Source: Malacoraja senta
Lineage: Eukaryota
Direction of reading: 5' to 3'
DNA length: 60,000 bases
NCBI GenBank assembly: GCA_038087875.1
Contig: CM075989.1
Span: 15,440,001-15,500,000 of the forward strand
Shown: in pieces, positions 10,705-49,911 of the stretch
Numbering within the stretch: the stretch's first letter is position 1
Layout: each line of letters begins with the position of its first letter
Position numbers and translations under genes: made by a program
Notes under the pieces: model-generated
What the model saw: only the letters and a program-made list of their open reading frames with translations
Databases searched by the model: none
Told to the model about the DNA's origin: nothing

Positions 10705-10802
10705 GAGTCTGAAGAAGGGTTTCGGCCCGAAACGTTACCTATTTCCTTCGCTCCATAGATGCTGCTGCACCCGCTGAGTTTCTCCAGCATTTTTGTGTAC
10801 CT
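10705..10802 (+). mobile_element. Penelope-derived hammerhead mini-element
   Basis: CTGAAGA-A-GGGTTTCGGCCC-GAAAC-GTT starting 10709; TSD ttgaattt at 10697-704 and 10803-10. Confidence 0.88.
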
Positions 10803-11079
10803 TTGAATTTTTTCTCTGTAGTTGTAATACTATAATGCTGTAACACTATATATTCTGAACTGAGTTGTAACACTCTTCTCTGCACTACCTGTATGTGGCT
10901 TGATTGTACTCAAGTACAGAATGATTTGTCTGGATAGCGCACAAACTAATCTTTTCAATGTATTTCAGTACATGTGATAATCAGACACCAATACCAATGC
11001 CTTCTCCTCAATAAAGGGATGGTAACGATCAATGCCAAATGTTGCAGCCACAACAGCTAACCCTGGACAGGACAAAATC

Positions 11080-11176
11080 GAGTCTGAAGAAGGGTTTCGG
11101 CCCGAAACATTGCCTATTTCCTTCGCTCCATAGATGCTGCTGCACCCGCTGAGTTTCTCCAGCATTTTTGGGTACC
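11080..11176 (+). mobile_element. Penelope-derived hammerhead mini-element
   Basis: Near-identical to 10705-10802; 12-bp TSD caggacaaaatc at 11068-79 and 11177-88. Confidence 0.9.
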
Positions 11177-12704
11177 CAGGACAAAATCATGTTAATTGTG
11201 ACTATTAATGTAACCATGGCTCTTGAATTCTGTGTTTCTCTCTCCCTCCAGGTGGCTGCTGGTGACAGAAGCAACTTCATGCAGTTTGCAGCATTTGGGT
11301 AATTGAGGAATGTCCCTGAGGCGTTCTGTACAGAGAGAGACAGCTTTATTTCATTCCCTCTTGCCAGTAATAAACAGATGGAGAAACCTCAAGGGTGAGC
11401 ACAGACTTAGTGCAGGGTGTCACTGACACTATGCACATTGCCTTACATTTTGTTCATGCAAGCGATCACAGGCGCAGATTATCCTTGCAACAGTCTCGGT
11501 TCCTGCAGCATGTAAGAGTGCTCTGTTAGGTTTATATTTACCTCACTGCAGCAAGTTCAAGGCTGGCTATTGGGAACAAGAGTTATCCCCTGACGATGTG
11601 ATTCAGATCTCCATTCTAAGACCGCATTCATGTGCTTGGCAGCTGTCCAGTAAAAGCCACCATGCTCGAAGAACAACATAGACTGTACAATAAGCAGCTA
11701 CAAGCTATATTTCTGAAGGAACTTTGACTGACACAGTTGGGCAGTTGTATGGGTTCGTGCTGGTCATCTGTAACCTCTTCAATCTGTTCATTCTGAGGAT
11801 CATCCCTTATTGCAGCAGCTCAGTTGAGGAGTGGAGGGGTGGGTGGAGGAAGATTAAACTGAGGAAGACAGAATGCAATGGGAAATGAGGGAACAGGAAC
11901 ATAAGGGAAGGTACAAGGTAGAAAGCTCAATTTGCCCGGATCATACAGACGCAAAACAATGCTGATGTCAGTAACCTCAAGTGCAATCTGGCATTCACCA
12001 ACATTCATGTTTCTCTCCCTTCCCAACACATTGCCCTCCCTTCAATAATGCAAAATCAATTACCATCTTCCTGATCAATTGGAAAGATGTTGGTGGGTGC
12101 CGTGATACCTCAGGTGATGGATACATGACATTAGTCTCTTTCTTTAGTGAAAGGATATCAACAAATTGGAAATAGTGCAGACAAGGTTTATTCAGTGATA
12201 CAAAAAATAGGAGATGTTAGAAACACCCTGCAAGTCAGGCAGCATGTATGGAAAGAGAAATAGAATGGGCGACTTGAGGAAATTTGAAGTTGAGGTTATG
12301 GTCCAATCACCAAAATGTTATTGAATTGTAGAGCATGCTCCTCCCGCTCCTAATTTGCATATTATCTAGGGTGATCCCTGGCCAAGATCCCATTACTGCA
12401 GCCTCTTTTGCTGCAGCACACTCACATGTGTGGATGCTTGTTCCATTGCATGGAGAGTTGCACGGATGAGCTGAAAGACATTATCTCACCTTCCTTCAAT
12501 GAAGGGCTTCGACACCTATGCTTAATTCCATGTGGTGCCGGACTCTTGCCTGTTCCTGCAGGACAGACTTTCCAGTAAATTAAGCATTCCATCAACTTTT
12601 CCTGTTGTCTGATCCACTGAAGTGGGCTGCTGAGTTCCCTGCAGCAGAGCTGGAGTGCGATTTCACTCTCTTTAAGATGAAAGGGGAAAGTTAAGATGAG
12701 AGCA

Positions 12705-13150
12705 GAAAGATTCTCTGCCACAGAAGGCAGTGGAGGCCAATTCACTGGATGTTTTCAAGAGAGAGTAAGATATAGCTCTTAGGGCTAACGGAATCAAGGG
12801 ATATGGGGAGAAAGCAGGAACAGGGTACTAATTTTGGATGATCAGCCATGATCATATTGAATGGCGGTGCTGGCTCGAAGGGCCGAATGGTCTACTCCTG
12901 CATCCATTTTCTATGCAATAGAAATCTGAGGGGCAACTTTTTCACACAGAGGGTGGTGGGTATATGGAACGAGCTGCTAGAAAAGGTGGTTGAGGCAGCT
13001 GCTGTAACAACATTTAAAAGACATTTGAACAGATTCATTATAGGATAGATGTATATTGGTAAATCTGGGCAGGGGAGAATCGTGTGGGTGTCGCCATCTT
13101 AGTTGGCTTAGGCAAGTTAGGCCAAATGGCCTGTTTCCGTGCTCTATGAC
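12705..13150 (+). mobile_element. Two adjacent CR1 3' ends of different subfamilies
   Basis: 12705-12915 closely matches 3878-4215. 12920-13150 reads LRGNFFTQRVVGIWNEL and ends gtgctctatgactct. Confidence 0.85.
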
Positions 13151-13214
13151 TCTTTGACCATATGTAACCTCTGCAATCCTTATTATCAACCCCCACCTAG
13201 TCCCTAAGCACTTG

Positions 13215-13345
13215 AGATAGTGCCTCCATATACTGGTTCAATCCTGACCTCAGGCACTGTCTGTGTAGAGTTTGTACGTTTTTTCTTGTGACTGTGTGGA
13301 TTTCTTCTGCGTGCTCTGGTTTCCTTGCATATTCGAAAAAATGTA
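13215..13345 (+). mobile_element. V-SINE (HE1-like) fragment
   Basis: B-box-like ggttcaatcc followed by V-domain-like gtgtagagtttgtacgtt...gtggatttc...gtgctctggtttcct. Confidence 0.7.
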
Positions 13346-15301
13346 AATGTAAAGGCCTATCTATGTATAAAGGAAACGTTATGGCTTTACAACATATTCG
13401 GTACATTCTTTTTATCAGGTAGCTTTGAAACAAAAAGGATGTAAATACAATAAGACATTCAAATCCAAAGGAGAAGGAGCCAGGAGGACATGTTAAAAAT
13501 GCCGGCGCTTTGTGGTTTAGGAGAAAGTGGTTATAGTTAAGATTTAAAATGTTAAATGGCATTTCTAAGCCAAGGATATTATTTCAATTTATTCAGAATT
13601 TATACAGGAACAAGTGAATTTGGATAAAATGAAATACCAGGAAGAATTCTCTTACTCAAAATGATACTAAAGCACATTTGGTTCCAAATCTATGGGGAAA
13701 GTTTCAATTGGCTGAATTGGCTAATGACCATAGTGTTTTGGCAATAACAGATTTTTCATTCTACTTTTAAGCTCTTGGTTACAGCACATAAAACAAACGT
13801 AATGCATTTCACACAGCAGGCATCTCCAAAGATATTTAAGTTGTCTTTTAACGTAATACCTTACATAATACTTCCAAAAATACTTACTGCAGAAATGAAG
13901 CACTTCCAGAACCCAAGAAGTGTGAAAACACTAATACAAAGAGGATTTTTATATTCATGCAAAGAAACCCTGCTACAACTTGTAAGTGAAATTTATATTA
14001 TTCCTCTATTCTTTGTAAAATTCTCATTGAACTTCAGAGACGTAAGCTGCTTTTTTCTGTGCGTTGGTTTACAATCCACAAAATATTGCAAAATTAATGT
14101 CATGCATAGCTGCCTTGACACTAACTAGCTCCTCTTCAAATATGCAGTATAGTAATCAATAGATAACTACTGTAAAGCAAGCAATCTCTTTATTCAGTAG
14201 ACTCATTTGGTGAATGACATGCTTGTGTATTACACTAAGTTACATTAAGTTATTCTCACCTTGCAAATAATAAACAGTCAAACCTGTACTTACTAATTTA
14301 CCACTTGCTGTTCCTGGCAATGCCAGTTTAGCCATAAATTTTTTACAATGTTAATTAAGGGTCCATTTGCAAATGGAAATCGTTACCTGCCTATTTTCTA
14401 AGAACTAGTGGGTTTATGCGGAATGCACAAAAAAGTTATGCATAGAATAGCTGGATCAGAAAATCATTCCTAAGTAAATAGTAATCTACACTGCAGTCGA
14501 CAGTGGCATTTGGGACAAATCCTTCGGCATCTGGAATAGAGCTTTCATGGCCGAAGATCAGTGAGAGCGTCTCTTATGAATGGTCACATTATTCTTCGGA
14601 GGCATTAGGCTCGGATCACAGCCTAAAGTTCTGTTGTTAGACAGATCAGTGAACATGTTAATAGAGTAACCAGGAGCAATGGCATGTCCCTGGTGAAAAT
14701 GAATCATCTGTCTCCCAAGGTAAAGCACATCCAGCTCATCCCTGCTCAAGTAACTTTTGGTTTGCTGAAAGTGTGCAGAACCAGGCAGGCACAACACAAT
14801 TGCATGTGGGTGACTTTTTGTTAGGTCATTATGTTGTAGACCAGAAGGATGCCTAAGATTACCAAGCTGTTAGTGAAATTCAGAAGAGAGCCTACACATT
14901 TAGACTTTTCATGAGAGAAATCGTGTAGAAAATGTACTGATTTAACGTCACACTTTTAAAACGAATAAGCCCCCGAGTGAAGAGAATATGGCAAATCAGA
15001 CTAAATTAATTTTGTCTATTTTATAGTGTCTGTGTACTTAACTGTGTTGAGAATGAATATACAATTCCTTAGAATAATATACATGGTATCTGGTCCAGAC
15101 TGGAAGGATCAGTCTTCTTGTCTGTTATATTTCCTCAACTAATTCCTCATTGTTTACATCACTTTCCTCTTTGGCTTGGCCACATGCTTCATTATTCCTA
15201 CTCCAACATTGCAACAGTGACTAACACCAGAAGTATTTGATTAGCCATAAAAACACATTAGAAGTGTCTTGAAATGGATGTGAATGGTGTTGCATTAAAG
15301 T

Positions 15302-15393
15302 CTGAAGAAGAGTCTCGACCCGAAACGCCGCCTGTTCCTTCTCTCCATAGATGCTGCCTCACCCGCTGAGTTTCTCCAGCATTTTTGTCTACC
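15302..15393 (+). mobile_element. Penelope-derived hammerhead mini-element
   Basis: CTGAAGAAGAGTCTCGACCCGAAAC; 12-bp TSD ttgcattaaagt at 15290-301 and 15394-405. Confidence 0.88.
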
Positions 15394-15481
15394 TTGCATT
15401 AAAGTAAATTTCTCTTTTCATGATAAGGCCTCTTTGCAGAGCAGTATTTGATGTCTTATAGTGAAATCCACTTCGACTTCA

Positions 15482-15542
15482 CCTTTGAGGCCCTATGAAA
15501 TGGTTTGTATATCCTTTGAGGCCCTATGAAATGGTTTGTATA
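15482..15542. repeat. Perfect 30-nt tandem duplication (period 31)
   Basis: cctttgaggccctatgaaatggtttgtata at 15482-511 and 15513-42. Confidence 0.95.
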
Positions 15543-15792
15543 ACAAAAGTTTAAAACAAAAGGACCCAAAGTGCTGTAGTTCTTCAGCAGGACAGACAGC
15601 ATATCTAGAGAACATGGATAAGTGTCGTTTTGGGTCGAGACCCTTCTTCCCTTATGTACTTTTGTGTATTAACCAACATCTGCAGTTCTTTGTTTCTAAT
15701 TCGAAGAACAGAACAGCAGCCTAGCTGAGATCGAGAGCCACTCTTTAGCATGTATTTAGAATATGGATTTAGCATGTATTTAAACTATATTT

Positions 15793-16868
15793 TTAGACCC
15801 TTTAGAAGAAGCAATGAATATTAAGGCAGATTCAGAAAAACTAATATCATATTTTTATAATAGTATATTAAATAGAGAATTACCCTCAACAGAGGCACTA
15901 AGAGAAGATTGGGAACATGAACTAATGATAAAGATCCCGAAAGATAGATGGGAAAAGTATCTGATGAATACACATAATTGTTCCATTAATGCAAGACATA
16001 ATTTAATTCAATTTAAATTATTACATAGACTATATTATTCAAAAACGAGGTTGAATAAATTTTACCCAAATGTCTCTCCCAGATGCGATAAATGTTTGTT
16101 TCAAAATGCCAATATAACACATTCATTTGTAGGATGTACAAAGTTGAATACATTTTGGAGCGATATATTTGATATATTTACAAAGCTCTTCAAGTCAAGA
16201 ATAGAACCTAATATGGAATGGATTATATTTGGAATAATATTAGAAGATATCAATTTAAACAAAGACCAAAACGTATTCTTTAATTATGGGTTAATAATTG
16301 GAAAGAAATTGATACTTAAATTTTGGAAAAATACAGCTATACCAACTATTAAAATGTGGATTAGGAATATGACGGACATAGCACACCTTGAAGAAATGAG
16401 ACTCCGCCTAATAGATAAATATGACCAATTCTTAAGGAGTTGGTCACCTTTCATTGACTTTTTGGAATCATGTGATGCAGCAGTACCGTAAAGATTACTG
16501 ATTTCAGGTCAGGTCGTGGATAGATTTACATCTCCAAACAAAGATTTGAAAATTTCTTTTTTAAGGGTCTTTTTCTACTATTTCTACTTTCTATTTTTTC
16601 TTTTCTTATATACACACTTCACGTTTTTCTATTTTCTACTATTTATTTTTCCTCTTTCTTTTCTCTATTTTTTTTTTCTTTCTTTGTTTTTATTTTTTAC
16701 CTCCTTTTCAAAAACATAAAACTAGAGGTTGTACATAGAATGCATTACGTTATGACATAGTTGGCACCTAAAATTAGGTGCCACTGTATTGTTTTGTATT
16801 GTATTAACTTCTAATAAAATAAACAAAAAACAAAAAAACAAAAACAAAAAAAACAAAAAAAACAAAAA
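15793..16868 (+). mobile_element. 5'-truncated L1-clade LINE: ORF2 C-terminus, 3'UTR and A-rich tail
   Basis: Open 225-aa ORF 15814-16491 with LIQFKLLHRLYYS and zinc knuckle CDKC...HSFVGC. T-rich 3'UTR, AATAAA near 16813, (A6C)n tail. Confidence 0.92.
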
Positions 16869-16913: not shown

Positions 16914-18118
16914 TTTTGTTTTATTCAAGTAATAAATATATACAATACAGGAACCATGCAAAAAAATCATCCAACATTCTCGGAGGCTATACAAACATTC
17001 AATTCTGTTTACACAAATTTATCCCCCACCCTTGCCACTCATGTGGCCCACTGGCGTGTAATCCCTTCCCTTATTTTTGAGGGGTGTCTCCACCACACCC
17101 TGCCCCCCCTTATCCAGCAGCGGAAGGATCTTAGACTGTGGTCCTCCCACACCGAGCCTTGGCGTTGGCTGCACCGAGCTTCAGTGCGTCCCTCAGCACG
17201 TACTCCTGCAGTCTGCAGCGGGCCAGTCGGCAACATTCCCGGACAGATATCTTGCTCCGCTAGGTGTTCAACAAAGCTCGGGCAGACCAAGGAGCGTCTT
17301 TCACCAAGTTGATGGCCTTCCAGCAGCATTCGATGTCAGTCTCTGAATGCGTCCCTGGGAACAGTCCATAAATCACAGAGTCCTCTGTGACAGAGCTGTT
17401 CGGAATAAATCGTGACAGGGACCCTTGCAAAAGTCTCCAGACTCGCTTTGCAAATCCACACTCTGCAAAGACGTGGGCAACCGTCTCCTCTCCATAGCAG
17501 CCGTCCCGAGGGCAGTGTGCGCTGGTAGTGAGGTTCCGACGGTGCAGGAAGGATCTGACGGGGAGGGCTCCCCTCACTGCCAGCCAAGCCAGGTCTTGGT
17601 ACTTGTTGGTGAGTTCTGGCGATGAGGCATTTCGCCAGACAAGCTGTGCAGTCTGCTCTGGGAACCATGCCACAGGATCCATGGAGTCATTTCCCTGCAG
17701 TGCCTGCAGGATGTTCCATGCTGACCACTGCCCGATGGACTTGTGGTCAAAGGTGTTGGTCCGGAAGAACCTTTCCACGAGCGACAGATGGTGCAGCAAT
17801 GTCCAGCTGACTGGCACATTTTGTGGCGTCCGTGCCAGGCCCATCCTTCGGAACACCGGGGACAGGTAGAACCTCAGCAGGTAGTGACACTTGGTGCCCA
17901 CGTGGCTTGGCTCTACACTCCATCTGATGCAGCCACACACGAAGGTGGTCATCAGGATGAGAGCATTGTTGGGCACGCTTTTACCTCCGTTGTCTGCCGA
18001 CGTGCATTGTGGCCTATCGCACCCGATCCATCCTCGACCCCCAGATGAACTGGAAGACGGCACGGGTGATCCCTGTGGCAAAGGAGGGAGGCACAGGCCA
18101 CACTTCGCCAAGTACAGC
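16914..18118 (-). mobile_element. 5'-truncated Tx1-like (L1 clade) LINE
   Basis: Frameshifted ORF2: LLYLA..VWP...FQFIWG...GGKSVP, AWLAVRGALP, CPRDGC.GEETVAHVFAEC. T-run 3' end; possible TSD aacattt at 16907-13 and 18119-25. Confidence 0.9.
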
Positions 18119-19134
18119 AACATTTGGGTTTTGTAATTAATATGACAAAGGAAGAGTATCCAAAATAATCTTCAGTCACTGACAGAGCATTTGACATGTT
18201 CTGTGCCAACAGCACAATCAGCATTATATTTACAATCTTGCTCAGAGACCATAAATAAATCTTTATTTTCTGCATAAGAGATTTATGCTCTCAGAATTCT
18301 TGCTTGCACGATTTTTCCACCCTGAATTTCCTATCCGTAGATTCCTGATTTTGCACCAATCTTTTCTGAAAGTGTTTACTTGTAAAACGAACCTCATGAT
18401 CACATTGACATTTTGATTGGGTTTAGAAAATATTGACAATGTAAAAAATATTTTGCCTTGTGCTTGCTGTATGTGTTTGGTATTATTACTGCAGTGGTCC
18501 ATCTGCCTTCATGGAAATGGATGCCTTCGATGTAATCATACTTGGAGTAATCCTTTTCAGCCACCAAGTAAAACGGTGGAAGAAAGCTTTCATTATTGAT
18601 GAGTTTTAATAGTTAAATAAGTGGTACTGAGGACATCTCAGGATACCCATTGGTCTGTGGCAGAATTTTTATTACAAAAATGTATAAAGAACATCCTGGA
18701 AAGAACTACACTGATATATTTTAAACAACAGTAAAATCTTTGTGGTGGATGTTGGATGATCACTTAAACAGCTTTAACTTACGAGGTCATAGACAACAAA
18801 CTGAAATTGGGAGTAATCTAAATACTTCCATTTTGACAGATATGTAACATAGCCTGAATGGTTCCTTCCAAACCAGATGTTTTAATGATTCTATGAATGT
18901 GCTAAAAATGTGACTGAAACACATGTAAGTGATATTTCCGATCTGCATCTGGATTTATATCCACTTCAGCTGTGCAGTACCTCAGCATCCAAAATGCACT
19001 CAATAAATGGTTTGGAATGGTCCAACATCCCATTCTGGTGCCTTTGAATACTTTAAATGATAGTTGTTGTTGTTGAGCTGGTACTGGTGAATTGTAGATG
19101 ATCAGCAAAGCCACCAGCAGTTTTGCTTTAACTC

Positions 19135-19870: not shown

Positions 19871-20209
19871 TGAAAATCCCCCACCCAATCCAGTCTCATT
19901 CCTATTCACCATTTACATCCGCTTAAGATGTGACTGGACTGCACATATCCAGTCTTCTGGTTGTGACTCAATCATTACCATCGTCCATCAAGCTCCAACT
20001 ATACCAGTAAACATTGATGCAAATCACCTGGCTCGCACAGAGCCAATCTCTGTTTGGAATATTTAAACGATGCGAGTATGCAGAAAAATTGACGGTTGGT
20101 TGCGATTTCTATGTTAGATGTTCTATGCGCACACTATATCATTTCAAAGTTATTAGCTGAACGGAAATACTTTTTTTAAAGCAGCCTTCCGAGCATCTCA
20201 AACTGCTGG

Positions 20210-20333
20210 AGGGTCGCGACCCAAAACATCACCCATCCTTTTTCTTCAGAGGTGCTGCCTGACCCGCCGAGTTACTCCAGCACTTTGTGTCTGTCTTCGG
20301 TATAAACCAGCATCTGCAGTTCCTTTCCGCACA
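20210..20333 (+). mobile_element. Penelope terminal-repeat fragment
   Basis: gggtcgcgacccaaaacatcacc...aaccagcatctgcagttcc; same family as the other mini-elements. Confidence 0.8.
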
Positions 20334-20334
20334 T

Positions 20335-20700
20335 CTTAAAGCGCTTTACATTTGAAGTGTGGCCACTATTTTAATGAATGAACCCTGACAGTCAACTTGC
20401 GCACAGAGAAATCTCAAAATAGCGACTAAAAATGTTGACGGAGGGGAATATTTTGGAAATGTTGGTCAAGTTTGTATATTGTCTTGTACTCCAGTGGCAA
20501 CCCTCCTGATCTTTGAAACAGTGACATAGGATGTTTGCGCCCAGCTGAGAAAACAAACAGGGCACGTAGTGTAACAACTTGTCTGGGAAACAACAGTTCC
20601 AACAGCGCTCTTTCAGTGAAGGGCCGACCGAGAACTTTGTGAAAGTCTCTGGGGTAGGATTTAAACCCACAACCTTATGAGTCAGTGGCAAAACTGCAAC
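20335..20700 (-). mobile_element. Ancient DeuSINE (SacSINE1-like) remnant
   Basis: Reverse complement begins tgactcataaggttgtgggtttaaatcctaccccagagact and ends in a gtaaagcgcttt tail. Family assigned from memory. Confidence 0.55.
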
Positions 20701-23700
20701 CGGTTGGGAAGTGGCTGCAACGACCGAGTTCCTCATGGCTGCGCTTGGGACCAATGACCGCCGGCGCTTCAAATTCACATCAGTATCAAAACTTGAAAGA
20801 TACTTGTTTGGTTTCATTTTTCTTGTATTCGTCAACACACAGAACACGGGTCCTTCCATCGGTGAGCACACTCGGTGAATGCTAATCCCAGAATCAGCTC
20901 AGAGCTGTGGTCCTACAGCGTAGTGCAGGTCCCTTTGGGGAATGCAGATACTGTACCGGGTGCTGCTGTCGACAAACTTGGAAGCGCTGTCCGGGTTGTT
21001 TCCGCGTTTGTATTCAAGCGGAAAATATTTTAAAATACTTTTTTTTAAAGTTCAAGAGACCGTAAAAGCTCAATGGAAATCAACGGAAGTTAAGACTCTT
21101 TGGAGGATTGCTGAAGAATTCGGCTTTGATTCCAAAAGATTCAGCGCCTGGCAGCAAAGCCAAAAACAATGCGAGACTGGGCTGATTTAACACGTTCCAC
21201 TTTCTCGCTGCCAACAGGTGACGCTAATTGCATCATTTCAAATCTGTGGCAATTGAACAGAAGAAAACCTGATAACGATTCTGAAGTACCCGTCTTGCAC
21301 AGATATGAGCAAGTTTTATTGAATTTCTAAGGGAGTTAACCTGGACAAATGCTCCAATCTGCAGCCACCTTGTAAAGGTAATAAAACGAAGCACAGATCT
21401 CGTACTTTGCAATGAAATCATATGTGGTACAAAATCATTCCAGCTTTCTACAATAACCTTCGCATCTCTCCGCTGGGATAAACACCGACTAATTATTTGA
21501 GTTGTTTAGTTAGAAGAGAAACATCTGAGGTATATGGTTTTCAAATAGACTTCTGTATTAGAAATATATATTAAATCATCCGAAAATCACAGTTTCACTT
21601 TATCAGCCATTTTCAGTGTGGAATTTTGCACGGGAATCCCTGCAGATCACTCCTTTCTCCTCGCCCTCTCTGAGCCGGGAGCACCTTTGTTCGGCTGTCA
21701 ATACAGTGACACTAGATGCTGCTGCTGGCAGGAATCGTCTTACTGGCAGAACTTTACAAAGTCTTCCTCTTCATGCTGCACCAATTAGCCTGAATACCGA
21801 GGTACGTGCTCTCCTTTTCATTTGCAATGTTCCTGTTTGTGAAGGCGTTTGTGTTTTTATTATGTAAACACAGCGGATGTCAGACATCAACTTTAAACAG
21901 CCCGGTCCGTGCGTGTAATGTACTGCTGTCATTCTATGTTATCATTCTAATGCAATATCCGAACTCCACGGAAACAGTCCGAACGTGATTTTCTTTTAAA
22001 CTAACGTCAGCAAAATGTATATGCTCAAACCATAATTGAACCACGGTGCAGCGTGAAAAAAGCTACAATTTGTTATCGTTTTACATCTGCTGATGTCACC
22101 ATTATATTCAATAACAAATGAAACATGTCGATAATTCCTGTTTACCTCGTGATCTTGCCGTCTTTAAAATACACCAGCGTGGAACAATTTCCAATCCGCT
22201 AATTAAATCTGGGTGTAACTGGACTGTCCTGGTATGTGGCCTTTCTGGTGTTAAACAATTGCGGCAAACGAGTAGAATTTCAACGCGGATTCCCGTTTCA
22301 TTAATTAGACCAACAGAGCCTCTAAAAGCAACTGTAAATGAACACTCAGTCTACCAACCTTGTAAACATGAGGATTGCTTCACCGGGTTGTCAGTATCGC
22401 TGATATCATATTCGGATACACGGAGTAAGATTGACTGCATATTGTGTCAGCGTAAACTGTGGGAGATACTTCCTCTGAAAGCTGAAATTACGTCCCAGGC
22501 AATGTAATGCAAAGGCCATGATCAATTCGCGAAACATTGCCACCAAGACGCGTCAACACACTTAGACTCTCATCGCTTTAATATGGAAGTACGTGCTTTA
22601 TATTTGGGGTTTTATTGATAACAGATAGATAAGTAAATTAGATGTTGAATAAATACCAGGAAATTAAAATTCTTCGTTGCGTGCGCAGAAATAATTTCAG
22701 ATGTGAGTTTGTGGGAGTCATTATCGAAGTGCATATTTCTTGACAAACTTGTTGGGATAATAAAATCTGATTAGCAACAGAATAAACTTGAAGGTTCAAT
22801 TCTTAGGTTGTTTTCTTTTTAAATGAATGAAACACCCGTGGGTGAATAAATGACAGAAAATGAAAACCTATACTTGGCAGCAGACAATCTCGGTATGACT
22901 TCTGTGACTTGAGAGAATAATATCATTTCTGGCGACATATCCGAAGCTCCAATTTGTCCATCTGCATTTTAAAGGAACATTACAAAGTTTCCCAGAAACA
23001 TTACTTAAACAGGTTCATAGAGACGAATGGACTGCCCTTTAACGCTATCTTTGGTGGGTTCTCTTTTTCTGATGATTATAATAAACATTTCTCGGCCGCC
23101 TTAGAGCAAATTATATAGCAGAGTGGTTTACGATTTTCCTGTCGTTTAAAGACCGTTGTTCAGATTGAAGTAGAAATCAAACATTAATATGGATTGAATG
23201 CAAACACGTTATTGATATACTTTCATCTCCTCTACACAATATTTAAAGATTGTCTGAATGGGACCAGACCCGAAACGTTGTCTACTTATTCCCTCCATGG
23301 ATGCTGCCCGATCTGCTGAATTCCTCCAACACTGTGTTTTACTCAAGATTCCAGCATCTACAAGTTTCTTGTGCCTCCAATCTAGAAATTGTCTACTGGC
23401 AAGAATTGCAAACTGCCAGATTAATGTAGATATTTACTGTCATATTTAAGTACTTTTCAATTAGTTATAGTTTAAACTAGTTAGAAGATAATCAAAATTG
23501 AACAGTACTTATCAAATTTATTTGCACACTGATATTCCCTATCATATAAAGCATTTTCATACATGAAAAAAAGCACCTCCCACGACTTTCGGGTATCTCA
23601 AAGGCTTCACGGCCAATGAAGCAAATTATCAGATTATTTTCTTGAGAGATGTGATGTGATATTTTAGATTAACGAGCTACGTTGTGCCATGTAATTGACA

Positions 23701-23883
23701 ATAATTATACGGAGTTACAGCTGCAATTGATCCTCATCCTGACAGTATTCACAATTCGGCAGTCCCGTGTCTTTCGTCTGTAAACTGAGACCACAGCAAA
23801 CTATGCAGTGCCGTTCAGTTTACCGGAAGGCCATTCCTGTTGAAACGGACATTATCTCTCACCAATAGAACACCTTAAAATAG

Positions 23884-24048
23884 GCAACGTTTCGGGCCGA
23901 AACCCTTCTTCAGACTGTCTGAAGAGGGTTTCGGCCCGAAACGTTGCCTATTTCCTTCGCTCCATAGATGCTGCCTCTCCAGCATCTATGGAGTTACTCC
24001 AGCATTTTTGTCTACCTTCGATTTTCCAGCATCTGCAGTTCCTTCTTA
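23884..24048. mobile_element. Penelope mini-element with 5' inversion (head-to-head hammerhead cores)
   Basis: Near-perfect palindrome 23878-23953 centred on 23916; 15-bp TSD aacaccttaaaatag at 23869-83 and 24049-63. Confidence 0.92.
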
Positions 24049-25779
24049 AACACCTTAAAATAGTTGCATTTAGCATTTCAGTGGATGAAATGTCGGGATA
24101 TTAAAGTTGCTGGGTAAACTTAACCGATAAAGAGTCGGAGCTAGAAACGGAGGGAATTAATGTGCATGGGAACTGTTATTTTTTAAATGTTCATGATAGT
24201 TTGTTTTTATTTATATTACTTTGCCTTTTAGTGTGAAAGAATTCCCCACGAACAGCTATGGGGCTATGGCTTCTTTCAACAGATGAGGGGCGGAGCGGGT
24301 GGCTTGTTAACCCTGTCTTGCCGCTGGAACCGCGTGCTTTGTGTCCAAGGTTCCCAGCGGCGGTGACCTGGGGATGCGGCGCTGGCGTCTGAGAGCTCGG
24401 AGCTGCAGCAGCCGCTACTCTGCCTCCACCCCGAACCGATTTTGTGGGATGAAAGAACAGGGGATCTTGGGAAAGGCTGGATGGTGCCCGAACTTCCGTT
24501 TTTTTTGTTTGCCAGCAGGATTTCAATACAAATTTAGTGTATCTGAACCCAGTTGAGAGCAACGCGCAAAGACCAATGTAATCCTCTTCAGTGGGTCAAC
24601 TAAATGGTGCGGGTTCGACAAATGTCACATGTTGCTTTCTGTGTTAGATTTGATGGCCCTCCATAAATCTTTCTAACTTCAGTTCGATTGATCGCCTCCC
24701 CTTCCGCTACCTTTCAATCGCGTGGGGATTGCCGAGTCCAGCGGCGAACAAACAGACAATTAAAAAGAAACTGTAGAAGCAAACGATTAAAACTGAGCAT
24801 AAAACCGCGAAAATCATGATTGAACGCAGGTTTGTGTCAAGAAAACTGGCGCCAGTTTTTTCTTTTGGGTTTATATTCATTTAATCTCTTTTCCAGTATT
24901 TGTGTGATTATTGTTAGGCCAAATCAGATTTAGATATCCCACATTCTTAATTACAATTACATTCATATCGCCATAATGTTTGAATGTCCCATTCAATTGA
25001 AAGTAAGATGTGTTGCGGCTGACACAAGAGACTGCAGATGCTGGAATCTTGAGTGAAAAGCATACTGTTGGATATCTTGTTGAGTTCGAACATATGTAAA
25101 TGACAAAAATAAACATTAATTCCAACTAAGTATGAATAATTCAACGCGTTATTTATTGTTAATATGATAAAGCGATTTCCATTCTAACGGCATTAATTAA
25201 TTCCAAAGATTGTTTCGTTTGTCCAGATATAGCTTTGATCTTCCAATGTCTATGACAATGAAATAGTTTCACACAAGCCACGATTCCAGACAATGCACAA
25301 TTAAAATTATTCCAAGTTTAAAAACTGTGTAGCCTATCTTTATCAACATGAACAGTTGCATGGTTTAAGTAACATTATTACCACGGCCATCTATTTGTTG
25401 ATATGGTTCTGTTCTCTTCCACTGATGCCAGTTATTTCGAAGCCATATATATTCAGTAAACATTGCCTCCAGGATGAATATATGTGTGTGTGTGTATATA
25501 TATTGGCCTCCGTACTACAGGAAGATAACATCTGACTGGCCATGCGTGTAATTCGACCCCATCAACTAATCTGCCGTCAATCAAATACAGGGGAAAACAT
25601 ACCGCTGCCTACCGCGCAAACAAAGGATCCTTCGCACTCATTAGCATTCTTTTTTTTTTGTAATCTCAACATCCACCAAGATGCAAGTGCAAGCATTAGA
25701 TTGCACACTGCATATTCAGTCTCCTGCAGCGAAGGGCTTCCAAGGCAGGCAAGGAAGGTACACGATTCCTCTTTGCTTT

Positions 25780-26777: not shown

Positions 26778-26978
<201 letters not shown>

Positions 26979-38789: not shown

Positions 38790-40460
38790 ACTCGCATGTG
38801 TCTCCCCGGTACCCCGCAGCTCCGACCTTGTTCTCCCTAGTCGCAACAGAGACGGAGTCCCTCTAGTCCTTGCGTTTCACCCCTTCAGCTGTCGCATACA
38901 ACAGATAATCATTCCAACGGATACCACCACTAGTCACATCCAACGGATACCACCACTAGTCACATGTTCCCATCTCAACCGTGCAGGTACAGCAGGCAGT
39001 GAAGAAAGCTAATGGAATGTTGGCCTCCATAACAAGAGGATTTCAGTATAGGAGTAAAGAAGTTCTTCTGCAGTTGTATAGGGCTCTGGTGAGACCACAT
39101 CTGGAGTATTGTGTCCAGGTTTGGTCTCCGAATTTGAGGAAGGACTTCCTTGTGATTGAGGCAGTGCAGCGTAGGTTCATGAGATTGATCCCTGGGATGG
39201 CGGGATTGTCATATGAGGAAAGATTGAAAGGACTAGGCTTGTATTCACTGGAGTTTAGAAGGATGAGGGGGGATCTTATAGAAACATATAAAATTATAAA
39301 AGGACTGGACAAGCTAGATGCAGGAAATTTTTCCCAATGTTGGGCAAGTCCAGAACCAGGGGCCACAGTCTTAGAATAAAGGGGAAGCCATTTAAGACTG
39401 AGGTGAGAAAAATCTTTTTCACCCGGAGAGTTGTGAATTTGTGGAATTCCCTGCCACAGAGGGCAGTGGAGGCCAAGTCACTGGATGGATTTAAGAGAGA
39501 GTTAGATAGAGCTCTAGGGGCTAGTGGAATCAAGGGATATGGGGAGAAGGCAGGCATGGGTTATTGATTGGGGACGATCAGTCATGATCGCAATGAATGG
39601 CGGTGCTCGATCGAAGGGCCGAATGGCCTCCTGCACCTATTTTCTATGTTTCTAACCAACTTTCCACCTTCCGCAGAGACCGTTCCTTCCGCAACTCCCT
39701 GGTTAACTCATCCCTTCCCACCCAAACAACCCCGTCCCCAGGTACCTTCCCCTGCAACCGCAGGAAATGCAACAGCTGTCCCTATACCACCTCCCTCGAC
39801 TCTGTCCAGGGACCCAGACAGTCCTTTCAGGTTAGGCAGAGGTTCACTTGCACCTCCTTCAACTTCATCTACTGTATCCTTTGTTCAAGATGTGCACTCG
39901 TACATCGGCGAGACCAAACGTAGACTGGGTGATTGTTTCGCTGCCTGGACCTACCTGATCTCCTGGTTGCTAAACACTTTAATTCTCCTTCCCATTCCCA
40001 CACTGATCTTTCTGTCCTAGGTCTCCTCCATTGTCAGATTAATGCTAAACGCAAATTGGAGGAACAGCATCTCATATTTCGCTTAGGCAGCTTACAGCCC
40101 ACTGGTATGAATATTGAATTCTCCAACTTCAAGTAACCCCAGCATTCCCTCTCTCTCTCTATCCCTCCCCCACCCAAGTCGCACCGCTTCTTGTTTTCAC
40201 CCAACAAACAGCTAACAATGGCCTGTTTCCTTTATCATTGTTACTTTTTTGCATATATTTAATTCATAGTTCTACATCTCTCTACATCATCATCTATATC
40301 TCCCGTTTCCCTTCCCATGACATTCAGTCGGAAGGAGAGTCTTGACCCGAAACGTCACCATTCCTTCTCTCCAGAGATGCTGCATGTCCCGCTGAGGTAC
40401 TCCAGCTTTTTGTGTCTATCTTCGGTTTAAACCAGCATCTGCAGTTCCTTCTTACACATA
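38790..40460 (+). mobile_element. Penelope-like element 3' part (GIY-YIG endonuclease region plus terminal repeat)
   Basis: VPLVLAFHP, GTFPCNRRKCNSCP, FTCTSFNFIYCILCSRC, YIGETKRRL, VAKHFN...LEEQHLIFRLGSLQPTGMN; degenerate hammerhead core at 40329. Tandem duplication with period 26 at 38914-38965. Confidence 0.92.
38981..39653 (+). mobile_element. Young CR1 3' fragment nested in the Penelope
   Basis: QVQQAVKKANGML...LYRALVRPHLEYC with one frameshift; tttctatgtttct tail; aacc flanks at 38977-80 and 39654-57. Confidence 0.93.
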
Positions 40461-43005: not shown

Positions 43006-43368
43006 AATAATAATAATAATAATGGATTGGATTTATATAGCGCCTTTCTAATACTCAACGCGCTTTACATCGCATTATTCATTCACTCCTCAGTCACACT
43101 CGGTGGTGGTAAGCTACTTCTGTAGCCACAGCTGCCCTGGGGCAGACTGACGGAAGCGTGGCTGCTAATCTGCGCCTACGGCCCCTCCGACCACCACCAA
43201 TCACTCACACACATTCACACACATTCACACACACATTCACACGCAGGCAAATGTGGGTGAAGTGTCTTGCCCAAGGACACAACGACAGCATGCACTCCAA
43301 GCGGGATTCGAACCGGTTACCTTCCGGTTGCCAGCCGAACACTTAGCCCATTGCGCCATCTGTCGTCC
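43006..43368 (-). mobile_element. Full-length tRNA-derived SINE with L2-type tail
   Basis: Minus strand: A box TGGCGCAATGG, B box GGTTCGAATCC, body gtgtccttgggcaagacactt, tail tgtaaagcgc...gcgctatataaat...(ATT)n. Confidence 0.9.
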
Positions 43369-44059
43369 TTGAATCTACTTTTGAATGAATATATGTACTT
43401 TGAACTTTTGAAGATTTAGAGGCAAATGCGTTCAGGTGGGCACCATGGAAGAATTGGGCCGAAGGGTCTGTTTTATTGCTGTTTAACTGATTCTCAGGGA
43501 GCTTGTTCATATGCACAGTGACAAAAGGAAGGTGTTTGTAATCCAATAGTAATTGTGTTCTTTGTCTTGTTGCATAAAGATAGCTACAGTTATGGAATAT
43601 TTGAGATTTACATTGATATCCTTTCCAGTGTGCTCTGTAAGATTGTGGGTACATAACTAAAGCTCTTAAGTTTTGATACTTTAGTGGCAAGAACTTTGGC
43701 CCCCAAAGCCATTTATTTTTTATCTGGAAACAAATGTTTTAACCTAGGAAAAAAAAGACAAAGTGCTGGAGTAACTCAGTGGGTCAGACAGCATCTCTGG
43801 ATAGCATTGGTAGGTGATGTTTTGGGTTGGGACCCTTCTTCGGACTGATTGTGGTTGGGGTAAGGAAGCTGATAGAGAGGTGGGGCAAGGACAAAGCCTG
43901 GCAAGTGAAAGGTTGATAGGTGAATGCAGGTGAAGGGGGGGGGGGGGTGGGGAAGGGGGAGTTGATTGGCAGGTGGTTGGACAAAGGCCAGAGATGAAAA
44001 CATGAAGCCAGAGGAAGGAATTTGGTGGGAGGGGACAAATACTGGGAGAAGGTGGTGGG

Positions 44060-44260
44060 TAGACGCAAAATGCTGGAGTAACTCAGCAGGACAGGCAGCA
44101 TCTATGGATAGAAGGAATGGGTGACGGTTCAGTCTGAAGAAGGGTCTTGACCCAAAACGTCAACCATTCCTTCTCTCCAGAGATGCTACCGGCATCCAGC
44201 ATTACTCCAGTTACTCCAGCATTTTGTGTCTACCTTCGAATCTGCAGTTCTTTCCTATAC
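44060..44260. mobile_element. Penelope mini-element, head-to-head inverted pair
   Basis: Minus copy 44060-44126 followed by a plus copy with CTGAAGA at 44134; 14-bp TSD gagaaggtggtggg at 44046-59 and 44261-74. Confidence 0.88.
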
Positions 44261-44348
44261 GAGAAGGTGGTGGGGTTTGGTTAGTTACCTAAAATTGGAG
44301 AATTCAATACCCATACTGTTGGGTTGTAACCTACTCACTCGGAATTAT

Positions 44349-44671
44349 TACTTACCTACCTACTTACTTACTGCCTATTGTGCCTCCTGGCATGTAGGGC
44401 AGCAACGAAGGTCCTCCACTTAGTGTTGATTCCTACAGTTGCTGTTTCCGTAACATATTTGTTTTTACGAGACAGGGTTGTTGGCCCTGTGCTCAACCTC
44501 CAACCTGGAGGACCAGTGGATCGCTCTTCGTCTCACCTCTACCCTCCGACCTGTCCAGCATGGGAGACCCTAACTGGAGACGAATCTCCTGCTGGCATAG
44601 CTCTGAGCTATTGGTCACTGAGACACATAAGCTCCCTGACCACGACAAGGTTGCAATCCAACGGGGAGAAG
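44349..44671 (-). mobile_element. Bipartite non-autonomous RTE element (5' end fused to 3' end)
   Basis: Minus-strand 5' end ccttgtcgtggtcagggagctt is RTE/Bov-A-like; 3' end gttgctgccctacatgcc...(TAAG/TAGG)n. TSD cggaattat at 44340-48 and 44672-80. Confidence 0.75.
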
Positions 44672-46129
44672 CGGAATTATGAAGGTATTCATATCTCCAG
44701 TTTGGGTGTGGCCACGCTCTGGCAATAGAGGTGGCCCAGGACAGAAAGGTCATTATGGGAGAGGGATGAGGAGCTAAAATGGTTAACAATCGGGAGATCC
44801 AGTAGACCTTGGTGGATCAAGTGTGTGTTCAGCAAAACAATTGCCTTTTCTACGCTTCGTCATGCCAACATAAAGGAAGCCATATCTAGAGCACCGGATG
44901 CAGTAGATGAGGATAGAGGAGGTGCACATGAATGTCGATAGCTTCTTCCAGTGCTAATGGTCCTCACAAGCCAAGACTATCTGAGTTGATGAGCCTTCTG
45001 TGCTGTCTCTGTCTACCATCTGTTCTTTGGTGTTTGAGTTTTCTACTGAGCATCTGGCTTCAGTTACTTGTATTGCTGTTGCTTTTCCTTTTGGGGATCA
45101 GTGGGACTTTTCAATCCAGGAACACGTTGCAGCTAATTAACTGCTTGATCTGCTGGCTATTCTCATCAAACCTGGCCTGGTTCTTGCTCAACGTGCCAAT
45201 TATTGCTGACTTCATTGGCTGTGGACACCATGTGGCTCTCATAGGTGAGAATTGACAGGTTGTCTATGAGGTGTGGTCTGAAAAGAGAGTTTTGTGGGGT
45301 CTTTTGAATGCTTTGACATTGAATATGTAACAATACTTCTGCTGATGCTAATGTTTTGTTGCTGCTGATGTTTTGCTGCCAGGTTGATCGGGTTAATAGA
45401 GCAGATTGAGCAATGTTCAGTTCAGCAGTTCACCTTTAGTGGAGTGGGCTATGTAGACATCTTTGCGATCACTTGGATGATATAATCAAACAGGGTGATA
45501 TTGCTTGGAGCAGGTGTGTTGCCAAGATGCTTTGTGCTTATTATTCTGATGAAGTTGGATGTTTTAATAACAAAGCATTTTTCAAGAGTAGGTCTCTCTT
45601 TTATTCCTTGCCTATCATACCATTACCAGAGGATTGTCTCATCCTGATCTAATGTTGAAATTGCTCTTAACTGTCAATATTGTGCCTTCCTTTAACATGC
45701 ACATCAGGATTTTTAAAGTTGGAGTAGATGCCCTTTGAGATACTGGATATTTTGATGCTTTTGACTGAAGTCTAGTATTTTGTCAACGTTACAATCATAC
45801 TGTCTAAGAAGATGTATCTGATATGTTACATCCATAAATTGTGGAAAATCCAAAATGGGACGGCTTGTTTAGAGATTAGTTGGATGTTGGATTCTGACCC
45901 TTATTGTTGATTATTGTTGAACCCAAGTTGATTTCTTGCATTGGATGACTTCTATCTCAAGGGAATTGGGAGAATATTTCAGATGGTCTTGTAATCCTCA
46001 CAATTTGGAGTGGGGTGGAGGTTGTTGCTGAGAAAACATGGTTGATTGCAAAAATCTTCATGGTGGGAATCTGAATAAAAATTAAATCCATCCTGACTGT
46101 TAGTGACATAACCTGTTAGAAACTCTCAG

Positions 46130-47171: not shown

Positions 47172-48970
47172 CTCTCAGCGGGCCAGGAAGCATCTGTGGA
47201 CAGAAACTGCCAGTATTGCAGTCTGTCTTTTTACAGATGCTGCCTGATCTGCTGAATACTGGCAGTTCTGCTCGAAAGTGTTTCACTGCAGATATAAAAC
47301 AATTGTATCACACTCGTGGTCATTGAAGTTGACAGGCAATTGCTTCTAATGACATTTGTGCAATGAAACTCGAACAATGCAGCCATTATTATTTTAACTA
47401 GAAAAACAGACGTAGCTCTTAAAAGTACCTTTTTATTGAAAATCCTGCAGTAAAAATAACAATGTTAATCTGAAACTCTAGTCCCTAACCCCCCCCCCCC
47501 CCTCCGCGCCTTCCTATGGACACAATTGTTTTTATATGCAATATTTTGTAAGAGAGCAACTATCTAGTTATAGAAGATCTACCTGTTTGAAGCTTCCAGC
47601 AACATGTGGGTTTCGTGTTACCATTGTGATGAGTGACATGAGTTTCAAGTGGACATGCGAGTCCATTATCTGGCTGTAACTTGTTAATATTGCATTGCTT
47701 ATGGGTTCTGAAGATTGCTTATCAACCAACATTAACTTCTCAGCACAGATTTTGACTATCCAAAGATTTTATGTTTGCCTTAATATCCTGAAGGCAAACT
47801 TAAAGCAAACCTCTTGGATGCAGTCATAATTATAGCTTTTGCCCACAAGTCTACATTTTGTGCTTTTGTCCTGATGCATTTTGACATTTGAGTGAGTGAT
47901 TTATTGCTGGTTATATAAAATAATTGAGTCATAAAAGAAGAAACAATAAAGAATTGTCACTAAAATGATTGCTCAAAGCTCCTGGAATTCACTCTTGATT
48001 TATTTATATCTGCTTAATGATTAATTTGGCATTGTTGCAATTTTCCTGTAATTCAACAACCTATTGTTATAGATTTGCTTCCTTGCATTCCTTGGTCAAG
48101 AGCGTTGGCTTGAATCAGAGGCAGAAAATGATCTAAGACTCAAAGTTCTGCGTTCAATGTTGTACTCTGAGCCTTGTACATGCACATTAAAATTTACACC
48201 GATCCCTTACCAGGAAAATAAATTAACTATTTATTAATTGATTGCAACATCTTGAAGATTTAAATTGGGTGCGCTCCGGTTCTCTGTCATGACCTATGGT
48301 CTGATTGAATGTAAAAAAATTGGAGTGAAATTGTAGACTGGGCAGAAATTAGAAAAGGAACTGAAATATTTCGGTAATAACTAATTTTCTAAAGCCTCTG
48401 TTTCTGGGGCGAAAGAAATCGGTTGAAGAACAGATACCTTCCATGCTTTATGAGAAACATTTCTTTCTGTGCCCAGTCATTCCATAGTGAGGGCGAGAGA
48501 GTGAGCAGGATGACATTTGGCATTGATAGTGTGAAGGTCAGGGTACCTTCCCCTTGTACCTGGTTGTGCCACCATTTGATCCATCCAGCCCTATGAGGGG
48601 CTAACATCTGATATCTTAGCAGACACTTCAGCATTTATCTCAGTCTCCAGTTGCTTATCTGGATTGGCATGTGTGCTAATTTCTTCTCTACTCTTTACAT
48701 GCACTCGCATGTGAACGCGCATGCATACACACACACACGCAGTTTGACACTGGTCATCCTGATTACCTTGCAGCTGGTGTTGCGACATTCTCTCCATGTT
48801 GAACAATGCTGGGATGCACTGTTCTGCCAGCTTGCACAACAGTGAGAACTAATGGTATTTTCTCTCCACTTCCTATTCCTTCCAAGAGAATTATTACTCA
48901 TAGATTGCTTTGCTTAATGTATTTAGGTCAAACCTTGAAGTGAACTGTATATGAACAGCAAATGTAACCA

Positions 48971-49609
48971 TCCTTATAACTATAAAACTCTGATCTTGGA
49001 TATGTGTGTGTGTGTGTGTATTTGTGTACTTATTTGTTCGGAGCGATCACATCTTCTCGAAAAAACGACGCTCTAACGGTAATTTTTTTACATATTCCGG
49101 TAGAGATTTATCCTGTGAAGTCAAAAATCGCCTTATCTGAAACATTCATGCATCGTTTCATGAGTTATTAATCAAAATGTTCAAAAATCTGAAGAGACTT
49201 GGAAAAAAATAACTGATTTTTCCCTGTGATGTTACAGCTGTGACATCACAATGGGATTGTAGCCCTGCTCGCAACATTGTTGCTATCCAAGTACACTGAG
49301 TCCTGCTAGCCCTAGCAGGTGCAAATGCATTTGTTTTAATGTCACAGTACACTGAGTTCTGCTAGCTAGCAAGTGCAAATGCATTTTTTAAAAGTTTAAA
49401 AATTAGGGAGGGTGCATAAGGTGAAATGAGCAGCCCCTGCGCAGTTGTCGGCTATGGGTGAGTGGTAGAATATTGCGTTGGCGAGCGGGTTGCGTTGGGG
49501 GACCAGGCCACCCGTGGGGGCTATGGGTGAGTGGTGGAATATTGCGTTGGGGAATGGGTTGCGTTGGGGGTCCAGGCCTCCCGTGTGACAGGGACCCCAC
49601 TTGGTCAAG
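48971..49609 (+). mobile_element. Probable non-autonomous Helitron
   Basis: Starts A|TC...actataaaa and ends ggtCAAG|T (CTRR variant) after a remnant GC hairpin. No TSD; internal tandem duplications. Confidence 0.6.
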
Positions 49610-49814
49610 TAATATTATAAAATTCCAAGTTAAATATTAGCTGAGTTTCATTCAATTGGGTTTTCATATCTTGAATGGAAATGCTGTTTAATAATTGTTC
49701 TGCTGTCTGTTAACTGATGAGTAGCTATCCTTAACTGTACATAATTGGCCATGAGAAATTGAAATAGAATCTGCATTGGGGATCAACTTCAAAGCCAAAC
49801 ATGTTCTTAATTGA

Positions 49815-49911
49815 AGGTAGACACAAAATGCTGGAGTAACTCAGCGGGACAGGCAGCATCTCTGGAGAGAAGGAATCGGTGACGTTTCGGGTCGAGACCC
49901 TTCTTCAGACT
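49815..49911 (-). mobile_element. Penelope-derived hammerhead mini-element with the best-preserved core
   Basis: Minus strand CTGAAGA-A-GGGTCTCGACCC-GAAAC-GTC (49908 to 49881); TSD tgttcttaattga at 49802-14 and 49916-28. Confidence 0.9.

Follow-up and report, generated by a model that had tools for sequence, protein, structure and literature searches.

In the 60,000-nt (60-kb) stretch of skate DNA analyzed here (the window), we found that short mini copies consist of the last 97 or ~133 bases of a Penelope-like element (PLE), and that most of the young ones begin at one and the same place, an A in AGTCTGAAGA situated 30 nt upstream of the predicted cleavage site of a hammerhead motif. This A is numbered +1 throughout (window position 40326 in the long copy). 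The reading that we favor, at a probability of about 45%, is that the mini copies may be run-off cDNA copies of PLE RNA with a capped start at +1. A repeat with two sharp ends would then record the start and the stop of PLE reverse transcription in vivo, and the mini copies would bear on PLE transposition, pseudo-LTR regeneration, intron keeping and hammerhead use. Solo PLE hammerheads are known already, while the fixed 5' boundary was not found in our literature search and is new to that extent; Lunse, Weinberg and Breaker (2016), on dimeric PLE hammerheads, may cover the variant, and Repbase or Dfam may already list the short consensus sequences.

Mini copies and their parent element

A profile built from seven copies gave 24 matches at E<=0.012 in the 60 kb, or about one per 2.5 kb; five shuffled windows gave two matches, with a best E of 0.35. 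All eight insertions named in a preliminary description of this DNA, i.e. five single copies and three inverted pairs, were recovered in place (Table 1), and each has its own target duplication within the claimed 8-15 bp: 10, 8, 12, 12 and 13 bp at the single copies 3967, 10705, 11080, 15302 and 49911(-), and 15, 14 and 12 bp at the pairs 23884, 44060 and 57505, respectively. Out of 5000 random site pairs, 121 matched over at least 8 bp and seven over at least 10. Six further sites (20200, 8049, 23252, the long copy and two old pairs) have no clear duplication, merely 4-7 bp. The PLE end at 40326-40460 also matches in the profile search, which bears out the claim that the Penelope ends in the mini-copy sequence and hence the PLE origin of the latter. 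Subfamilies sharing the 5' boundary are merely 82-87% alike.

Table 1. Mini copies, PLE remnants and related features in the window.
Feature	Position	Strand	Target duplication	Remarks
Long-tail mini copy, start -1	3967..4087	+	3957-3966 / 4088-4097	15 nt deleted across stem II/GAAA
Short mini copy, subfamily B (UUCG loop)	10705..10802	+	10697-10704 / 10803-10810	extra G before +1, core intact
Short mini copy, subfamily B	11080..11176	+	11068-11079 / 11177-11188	extra G before +1; 96% identity to 10705
Short mini copy, core decayed	15299..15395	+	15290-15301 / 15394-15405	start +1..+4, overlapping duplication
Short mini copy, subfamily A	49815..49911	-	49802-49814 / 49916-49928	core intact; 5' junction with 4-nt filler
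Head-to-head pair, subfamily B	23879..24053	.	23869-23883 / 24049-24063	minus arm +1..+38; plus arm +2 to tail end; 77-nt hairpin
Head-to-head pair inside older PLE	44060..44260	.	44046-44059 / 44261-44274	minus arm start +24..+26; plus arm -2..+1
Head-to-head pair	57505..58533	.	57493-57504 / 58534-58545	minus arm from +32..+34 (cleavage site) to tail; plus arm +2..+80
Unrelated insert splitting minus arm of 57505 pair	~57549-58384			
5'-truncated broken PLE ORF	38795..40136	+		linker, CX4CxxC finger, GIY-YIG-type endonuclease; 5' limit approximate
Stop codon of broken PLE ORF	40134-40136			
Other repeat interrupting PLE ORF	~38977-39650			
Pseudo-LTR/3' UTR, pyrimidine-rich	40137..40325	+		upstream of boundary; TATA at -31 (40295); CAG at end
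Hammerhead region of long copy, +1..+34	40326..40359	+		core mutated; predicted cut after +31
Optional ~35-nt PLE tail	40423..40458	+		between the two 3' ends
Older long PLE copy, other subfamily	43736..44932	-		endonuclease remnant, own pseudo-LTR
Boundary in older long PLE copy	+1 = 43846			CAG at same place
Young copy with tail, truncated at ~+60	8049..8131	+		off the boundary
Older long-tail copy	20200..20335	+		start +1 or ~+11
Old copy, distant subfamily (69% to A)	23251..23380	+		start ~+2
Old head-to-head pair	15563..15700	.		minus arm start ~+6; plus arm = tail region alone

Pattern scans for more copies returned 0, and 7 seed-only chance matches, in viral contigs, and 0 and 0 in prokaryote genomes; one metagenome locus was rejected as a different, canonical-looking hammerhead with the core alone in common. 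The endonuclease query kept 0 of 47 candidates in viral contigs, and a word-index protein search gave no match.

The closest named protein relatives of the parent element come from little skate (70%), whale shark and Atlantic stingray. RVT_1 together with a C-terminal GIY-YIG domain was found in five of the six full-length relatives scanned; the broken C-terminal ORF part in the window has no Pfam match of its own, and holds a finger, CNRRKCNSC, followed by IYCILCSRC and H..H. The parent is Penelope-like (RT and GIY-YIG in one ORF), the RT being seen in the relatives and the C-terminal part in the window. It has a CX2-5CxxC finger ahead of a C-terminal, CCHH-bearing GIY-YIG, which assigns it to Neptune/Nematis jointly. 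In the available text of PMC8557442 and PMC3846280, these PLEs are like the parent of the mini copies in protein architecture, tail, head-to-head inversions and variable target duplications, but their truncation is described as variable, whereas young skate copies mostly have one common 5' boundary and the mini copies are without any ORF or upstream pseudo-LTR sequence.

The mini copies end at either +97/98 or +129..134, ~35 nt apart, and loose contig ends occur behind 40422/40423 in three of four runs and behind 40458/40459 in all four. These two 3' ends correspond to the known optional 30-40 bp PLE tail, which in vitro is the stretch between two internal RT start sites and needs no ribozyme cleavage (PMC11167929, available text). 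In other PLEs, RT start sites lie ~110-150 nt past the hammerhead. Head-to-head inverted partners with 5' truncation are, in the available text of PMC8557442, a described form of PLE insertion; this form and the tail behind the two lengths had both been overlooked in the preliminary description.

The hammerhead motif

A minimal-hammerhead descriptor matches four places (10709+, 23919+, 23913- and 49908-), against a mean of 0.005 matches over 200 shuffled windows, in keeping with the minimal type I hammerhead with an ACGU palindrome proposed earlier. By its letters, the motif follows the PLE minimal type I pattern, i.e. CUGANGAH, G10.1-C11.1 in helix II, GAAA, a palindromic 15.1-16.1 and NUH. 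The remaining cores are decayed, as had been noted for some copies, often at CpG, and helix I is indeed 2 bp, as in D. virilis. One reading frame of subfamily A stays open across the hammerhead and the tail, without an ATG. The extra A after A9, raised earlier as a caveat, belongs to the published consensus CUGANGAH (PMC4209133, available part). In stem II, none of the 6 pairs changes on both sides across 13 copies, the changes being one-sided, from U-A to U-G alone, and the covariance-model check, run with Rfam, gave no hammerhead family at E<=10. An Rfam match to mir-722, at 44 bits against a gathering value of 81, was judged a hairpin look-alike.

The PLE hammerheads of Cervera and De la Pena (2014, PMC4209133) likewise have CUGANGAH, G10.1-C11.1 and a loopless palindromic helix III, and thousands of solo ones are called probable truncated PLEs in the available part of that paper. 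The searchable part of its supplement, with one file outside the search, holds no shark or skate entry, and no analysis of solo-copy boundaries like the present one for the skate was found in the available part.

The fixed 5' boundary

Among the young short copies, nine of 12 5' ends fall within -3..+4, a 7-nt span (P ~3e-7 against uniform ends over +1..+97, independence assumed), and the remaining three lie at +24..26, +32..34 and +60; older copies, 6/9 of which match only from +18..+41, were excluded from the count. Breakpoints in the window are thus not evenly spread, and the earlier claim of a fixed boundary that self-cleavage does not explain stands. Contig depth summed over +25..+120 amounts to ~9-16x that of the best upstream pseudo-LTR bins (X1, X2), a ratio that is too high because the reference diverges around +1 and some subfamilies have different pseudo-LTRs, contig depth being no copy number; a dip at 40302-40349 comes partly from the reference's own substitutions.

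The context of the boundary is initiator-like, +1 being the A of a C/A step with YYANWY in all intact copies (exact TCAGTY has a frequency of 0.0007 per base). The TATA of the long copy is a weak match, TATATCTC (0.005 per base), and is absent from the same position in the older long copy. In two of the five single copies, the duplication is separated from +1 by an extra G, a feature that in LINE-1/SVA is known to point to copying of the cap (PMC4859970); being 96% identical and 375 bp apart, these two copies may be of one source.

Under the run-off reading, the mini copies would be short products of the PLE's own target-primed reverse transcription. The template would be uncleaved PLE RNA, probably a Pol II product of the pseudo-LTR promoter, with its capped 5' end at +1. 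RT would start at the tail copy nearest the RNA 5' end and come off the cap after 97-133 nt, and two cDNAs primed on opposite strands could be joined by 1-3 nt microhomology into head-to-head pairs. Retroviral minus-strand strong-stop DNA is also a short cDNA, one that spans the RNA from an internal priming site up to its cap; the likeness is a works-like analogy only, the mini copies being without tRNA primer or LTR, and their product, unlike strong-stop DNA, would integrate directly. Elsewhere among PLEs, both strands are nicked by the GIY-YIG nuclease, and the start of RT is internal to the RNA (PMC11167929). Anole Poseidon PAc (Frangieh et al. 2024, the same source) has two RT start sites bounding the tail, and both its strands are cut and extended with hammerhead cleavage unnecessary, but it is of another clade, and the available text reports no short insertions that result from run-off and have a fixed 5' end.

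The boundary could instead be a truncation hotspot, with RT on a long PLE RNA proceeding from the 3' tail and often halted near +1 by structure or protein at the hammerhead, in which case the mini copies would be an ordinary, abundant PLE fragment. We regard this as unlikely. A hairpin does fold from the first 51 nt; in subfamily A its base is at +3, whereas in B it is at the extra G. Internal duplications and an inversion at self-complementary segments in 23917 and 44131 show that RT slips in this region. The hairpin is, however, as stable as shuffles (z 0.18 and -0.05), shows no two-sided covariation at +3:+51 in nine copies, and is weak as cDNA (-2.6 to -6.7 kcal/mol, the basal helix being unformed in A). 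A structure would be expected to stall RT on its 3' side, which would predict ends near +24..+50, not +1. That 5' truncation is usual among PLE copies (PMC8557442, available text) speaks for a hotspot.

The AG at the boundary is preceded by a 77% pyrimidine tract and resembles a splice acceptor. It seems highly doubtful that a pseudo-LTR intron has its acceptor at +1/+2, the copies coming from RNA spliced to a very short, AG-terminated first exon or from a splicing intermediate that halts RT near the branch point, even though both long copies have a pyrimidine tract followed by CAG, the D. virilis Penelope intron ends at helix I (with the start site ~120 nt upstream), and a YAG ends 0-9 nt before CUGA in 23 of 56 published PLE hammerheads (by eye, among related species that are not independent). 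Splicing would remove the AG that the mini copies keep, which is a point for an RNA start, and upstream exon sequence is not common to the copies. Furthermore, a branch at TGAC (-6) predicts -5 ends, none of which was seen, and there is no intron-like joint among the 15 listed of ~496 joints.

Possible self-propagation and other possible origins

The preliminary description had proposed a SINE- or retrozyme-like family with a fixed 5' boundary; the boundary held, the separate family was not supported, one reason being that the boundary is common to subfamilies merely 82-87% alike and to both 3' ends. A self-propagating SINE-like family, in which a few masters starting at +1 would owe their transcription to an internal Pol II promoter or to flanking sequence and be mobilized again by PLE proteins, is in our view distinctly unlikely. 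It would fit the numbers, since short forms far outnumber long ones (2/14 young ends in the window) and subfamily B has no long copy there; an internal promoter is present in D. virilis Penelope, and non-autonomous PLEs exist (MRC1). The copies are no SINE for want of Pol III boxes, the best A box in the first 97 nt having three mismatches and the best B box two, no tRNA was found on any copy, and Rfam gives no match to tRNA, 5S or 7SL. Moreover, A mini copies are 91% identical to the end of the long copy, and each of the two 3' ends is seen in A as well as in B. The anole PLE requires RNA to ORF +172, past its main start site at 111-118 (PMC11167929, available text), and by this analogy the downstream RNA that the enzyme needs would be missing from new short copies. 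The mini copies are probably dead on arrival, which makes them a by-product class rather than a self-propagating family.

Animal non-LTR retrozymes (PMC7229834; bioRxiv 10.64898/2026.07.22.740005), present in the single chondrichthyan sampled with a mean of 363 bp, are likewise non-coding, derived from PLE pLTRs and dispersed as monomers with a type I hammerhead. They are defined by hammerhead-bearing tandem units and circular RNAs, whereas the skate has 97-133 bp monomers or inverted pairs with a 2-bp helix I. A retrozyme route, with the unit arising from dimeric hammerhead cleavage and a circular RNA, is very improbable: the window has no head-to-tail tandem among its 24 matches and the boundary is wrong, cleavage predicting +32 starts. 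The dimer fold (helices II and III alone) is estimated at 9-14 kcal/mol above the best fold. The arm at 58443 does begin exactly at +32, the first base past the cut, but that junction also shows 2-nt microhomology. Rare head-to-tail joints, leading from the tail end back into the hammerhead region, are present in public contigs (12, 13 and 3 contigs of X1, X2 and X15, respectively).

Solo formation, i.e. loss of the interior by recombination between +1..tail direct repeats bounding full-length copies, would leave the boundary as an RNA start and account for a single unit with a duplication, and solo pLTRs have been reported from PLEs of rotifers (PMC3846280). We give it hardly any credence, as repeats of 97-133 bp are short for recombination, and the head-to-head pairs, with both arms short and fillers at the junctions, suggest that synthesis took place at insertion.

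Quite doubtful, too, is a wider version of the capped-start reading, in which the hammerhead would be both the 5' end of PLE mRNA and an internal Pol II promoter, and the integrated capped-leader cDNAs would in part be retranscribed and recopied as a ribozyme-headed Pol II mini-retroelement that cartilaginous fishes would carry at very high copy number; in that case the edge of the pseudo-LTR, too, would be fixed by the run-off step. Inverted pairs, lastly, bring long hairpins and mobile AG and initiator-like sites into host introns.

Short insertions and their parent element

All eight insertions reported in the preliminary description as independent (single copies at 3967, 10705, 11080, 15302 and 49911(-), head-to-head pairs at 23884, 44060 and 57505) were found with their own target duplications, of 8, 10, 12, 12, 12, 13, 14 and 15 bp. 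By chance, a match reached 8 in 121 out of 5000 random site pairs and 10 in 7 out of 5000, while six further sites given the same test yielded only 4-7 bp. A profile built from seven copies gave 24 matches in the window, as compared to two weak matches in five shuffled windows. The window stretch was present in public sequencing runs in 20 out of 21 rows, from 13 studies and several organisms.

The mini copies were also said to share the end of a GIY-YIG Penelope-like element (PLE), which was confirmed for the element at ~38795-40460 (see table). Among named relatives, predicted proteins from little skate (70% over 71 aa), whale shark and Atlantic stingray come closest to it. Of six full-length relatives scanned, five combine RT with a C-terminal GIY-YIG domain. 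Together with the finger and GIY-YIG-type endonuclease, this makes a cartilaginous fish the most likely host and a Neptune/Nematis-type PLE the most likely parent, following the definition in PMC8557442 (excerpt). That the mini copies originate from, and were mobilised by, PLEs is nearly certain.

Positions are numbered from the A of AGTCTGAAGA (+1, window 40326 in the long copy), with the predicted hammerhead cut after +31. The copies stop at either +97/98 or +129 to +134, and loose ends of public contigs accumulate behind 40422/40423 (listed for three of four runs) and 40458/40459 (all four). PLEs are known to carry an optional 30-40 bp tail (PMC8557442, excerpt), and the stretch between the two 3' ends is this tail, which in the anole element is located between two internal RT start sites (PMC11167929, excerpt).

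The 5' boundary

The 24 matches were sorted into 12 young short ends, two long copies, one half of a split arm, and nine older copies, excluded from the count of 5' ends as theirs could not be fixed. Nine of the young ends lie within -3 to +4, and the remaining three at +24 to +26, +32 to +34 and ~+60. The fixed boundary proposed earlier is supported: tested against ends spread evenly over +1 to +97, the clustering has P ~3e-7 after scan correction, or ~3e-4 when cut to 6/9 for non-independence. Three of the excluded copies start near the boundary, and six match from +18 to +41 only. This offset could stem from decay or mark a second class close to the cut. Contig depth summed over +25 to +120 was ~9-16x that of the best upstream bins of the pyrimidine-rich pseudo-LTR in two runs (X1, X2). 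This ratio is a hint and gives no copy number, since divergence of the reference and the presence of subfamilies whose pseudo-LTRs differ both inflate it. We consider it highly probable that the boundary is real genome-wide.

Both long copies have a pyrimidine tract followed by TC-AGTC at the boundary, and YCAG is retained there in the letters read from public contigs. We take this motif to be initiator-like, with A at +1. A TATA is situated exactly at -31 in the younger long copy; none was found at the corresponding place in the older one. In two of the five single copies, a G belonging to neither lies between duplication and +1, such an extra G being a mark of cap copying in LINE-1 and SVA (PMC4859970, excerpt). 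In D. virilis, the promoter lies within the pseudo-LTR, with the start at 371 and an intron at 416-491 (PMC2377424, excerpt) whose end adjoins helix I (PMC4209133, excerpt). Judged by its letters, the boundary doubles as an acceptor-like CAG. Among the 56 hammerheads in the part of the PMC4209133 supplement inspected by eye, from related and hence not independent species, YAG occurs <=9 nt before CUGA in 23, and UCAGUY in five. A splice-linked boundary is nevertheless improbable: the window copies still contain AG and have no upstream exon in common, and this speaks for a start site.

Hammerhead motif and proposed mechanism

A minimal-hammerhead descriptor matched four places in the window (0.005 expected), and on sequence grounds the predicted ribozyme of the copies belongs to the minimal PLE hammerheads. 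The model search suggested earlier returned no matching hammerhead model in Rfam. As to the stem II covariation set beforehand as a check, an alignment of 13 copies has only U-A to U-G changes in the 4-bp helix II and the 2-bp helix I, with no two-sided change in either. A ribozyme or retrozyme route, to which one arm beginning at +32 and rare tandem joints in public contigs could point, is very improbable, given a dimer fold unfavourable by 9-14 kcal/mol. A truncation hotspot setting the boundary is unlikely, yet the strongest of the alternatives; the best fold does have a hairpin from +3, but its stability is not beyond that of shuffles and covariation is absent. A metagenomic contig (L001, 1-45), otherwise unrelated, holds a type I hammerhead with a nearly identical helix II, a 4 bp helix I and a palindromic helix III loop.

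It was observed directly that the copies match the PLE end, carry duplications, have either of two 3' ends, cluster at their 5' ends, and form head-to-head pairs whose arms are joined by 1-3 nt microhomology. That both strands are nicked and that RT starts internally is borrowed from other PLEs. The anole enzyme cuts and extends both strands, hammerhead cleavage being unnecessary (PMC11167929, excerpt). In our main reading (probability about 0.45), the template would be an uncleaved PLE RNA capped at +1, on which RT would begin at the tail site nearest the RNA 5' end and copy until run-off, two such cDNAs giving rise to an inverted pair. Solo formation by recombination has very little probability. 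As the anole enzyme requires downstream RNA, to ORF +172 (PMC11167929, excerpt), which the mini copies would be without, they are probably dead; self-propagating master copies are a rather unlikely source, slightly less so than splicing. Both copies at 23960-23995 and 44180-44215 show short internal duplications or inversion at complementary GATGCTG/CAGCAT segments, which suggests template slips while copying.

In how they work, the mini copies resemble a PLE insertion product. The SINE- or retrozyme-like family first envisaged is not supported: neither a tRNA head nor Pol III boxes were found, and the 24 window matches include no tandem units (retrozyme definitions from PMC7229834 and bioRxiv 10.64898/2026.07.22.740005, excerpts; the latter samples a chondrichthyan). 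Publications already describe minimal hammerheads dispersed as solo motifs, as well as non-coding elements derived from PLEs. In the literature and supplements searched, neither a 5' boundary fixed at helix I nor this mini-copy family in sharks and skates turned up. The mini copies are real and abundant and mostly accounted for by known PLE biology, beyond which one sharp, testable detail is left.

Other features of the window

Repeats and elements identified in the window
Feature	Position	Strand	Details
Broken, 5'-truncated PLE	~38795-40460		CX4CxxC finger and GIY-YIG-type endonuclease; ends in the copies' sequence
Older long PLE copy	43736-44932	-	Another subfamily
Tc1/Sleeping Beauty-like DNA transposon	8831-10450		Inverted arms of 179 nt, 93%; looks young
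Open transposase frame, 343 aa	9051-10082	-	HTH and DDE domains; inside the 8831-10450 transposon
Probably another DNA transposon	1533-3103		61-nt perfect inverted arms and inner 77-nt arms
Probable tRNA-derived SINE	43292-43366	-	tRNA-Ala-like head adjoining short simple repeats
Repeat within PLE-derived sequence	44335-44680		Starts with short simple repeat
Repeat within PLE-derived sequence	57549-58384		Starts with short simple repeat
Open frame, LINE remnant	15784-16488	+	zf-RVT match
Open frame, LINE remnant	17263-18171	-	zf-RVT match

The two unrelated repeats and the mini pair at 44060 are nested insertions in PLE copies. The head-to-head pair at 23879-23955 folds into a near-perfect hairpin of 77 nt (z -14) that may give rise to small RNAs, with a sub-threshold score of 44 vs 81 bits against the fish mir-722 precursor model.
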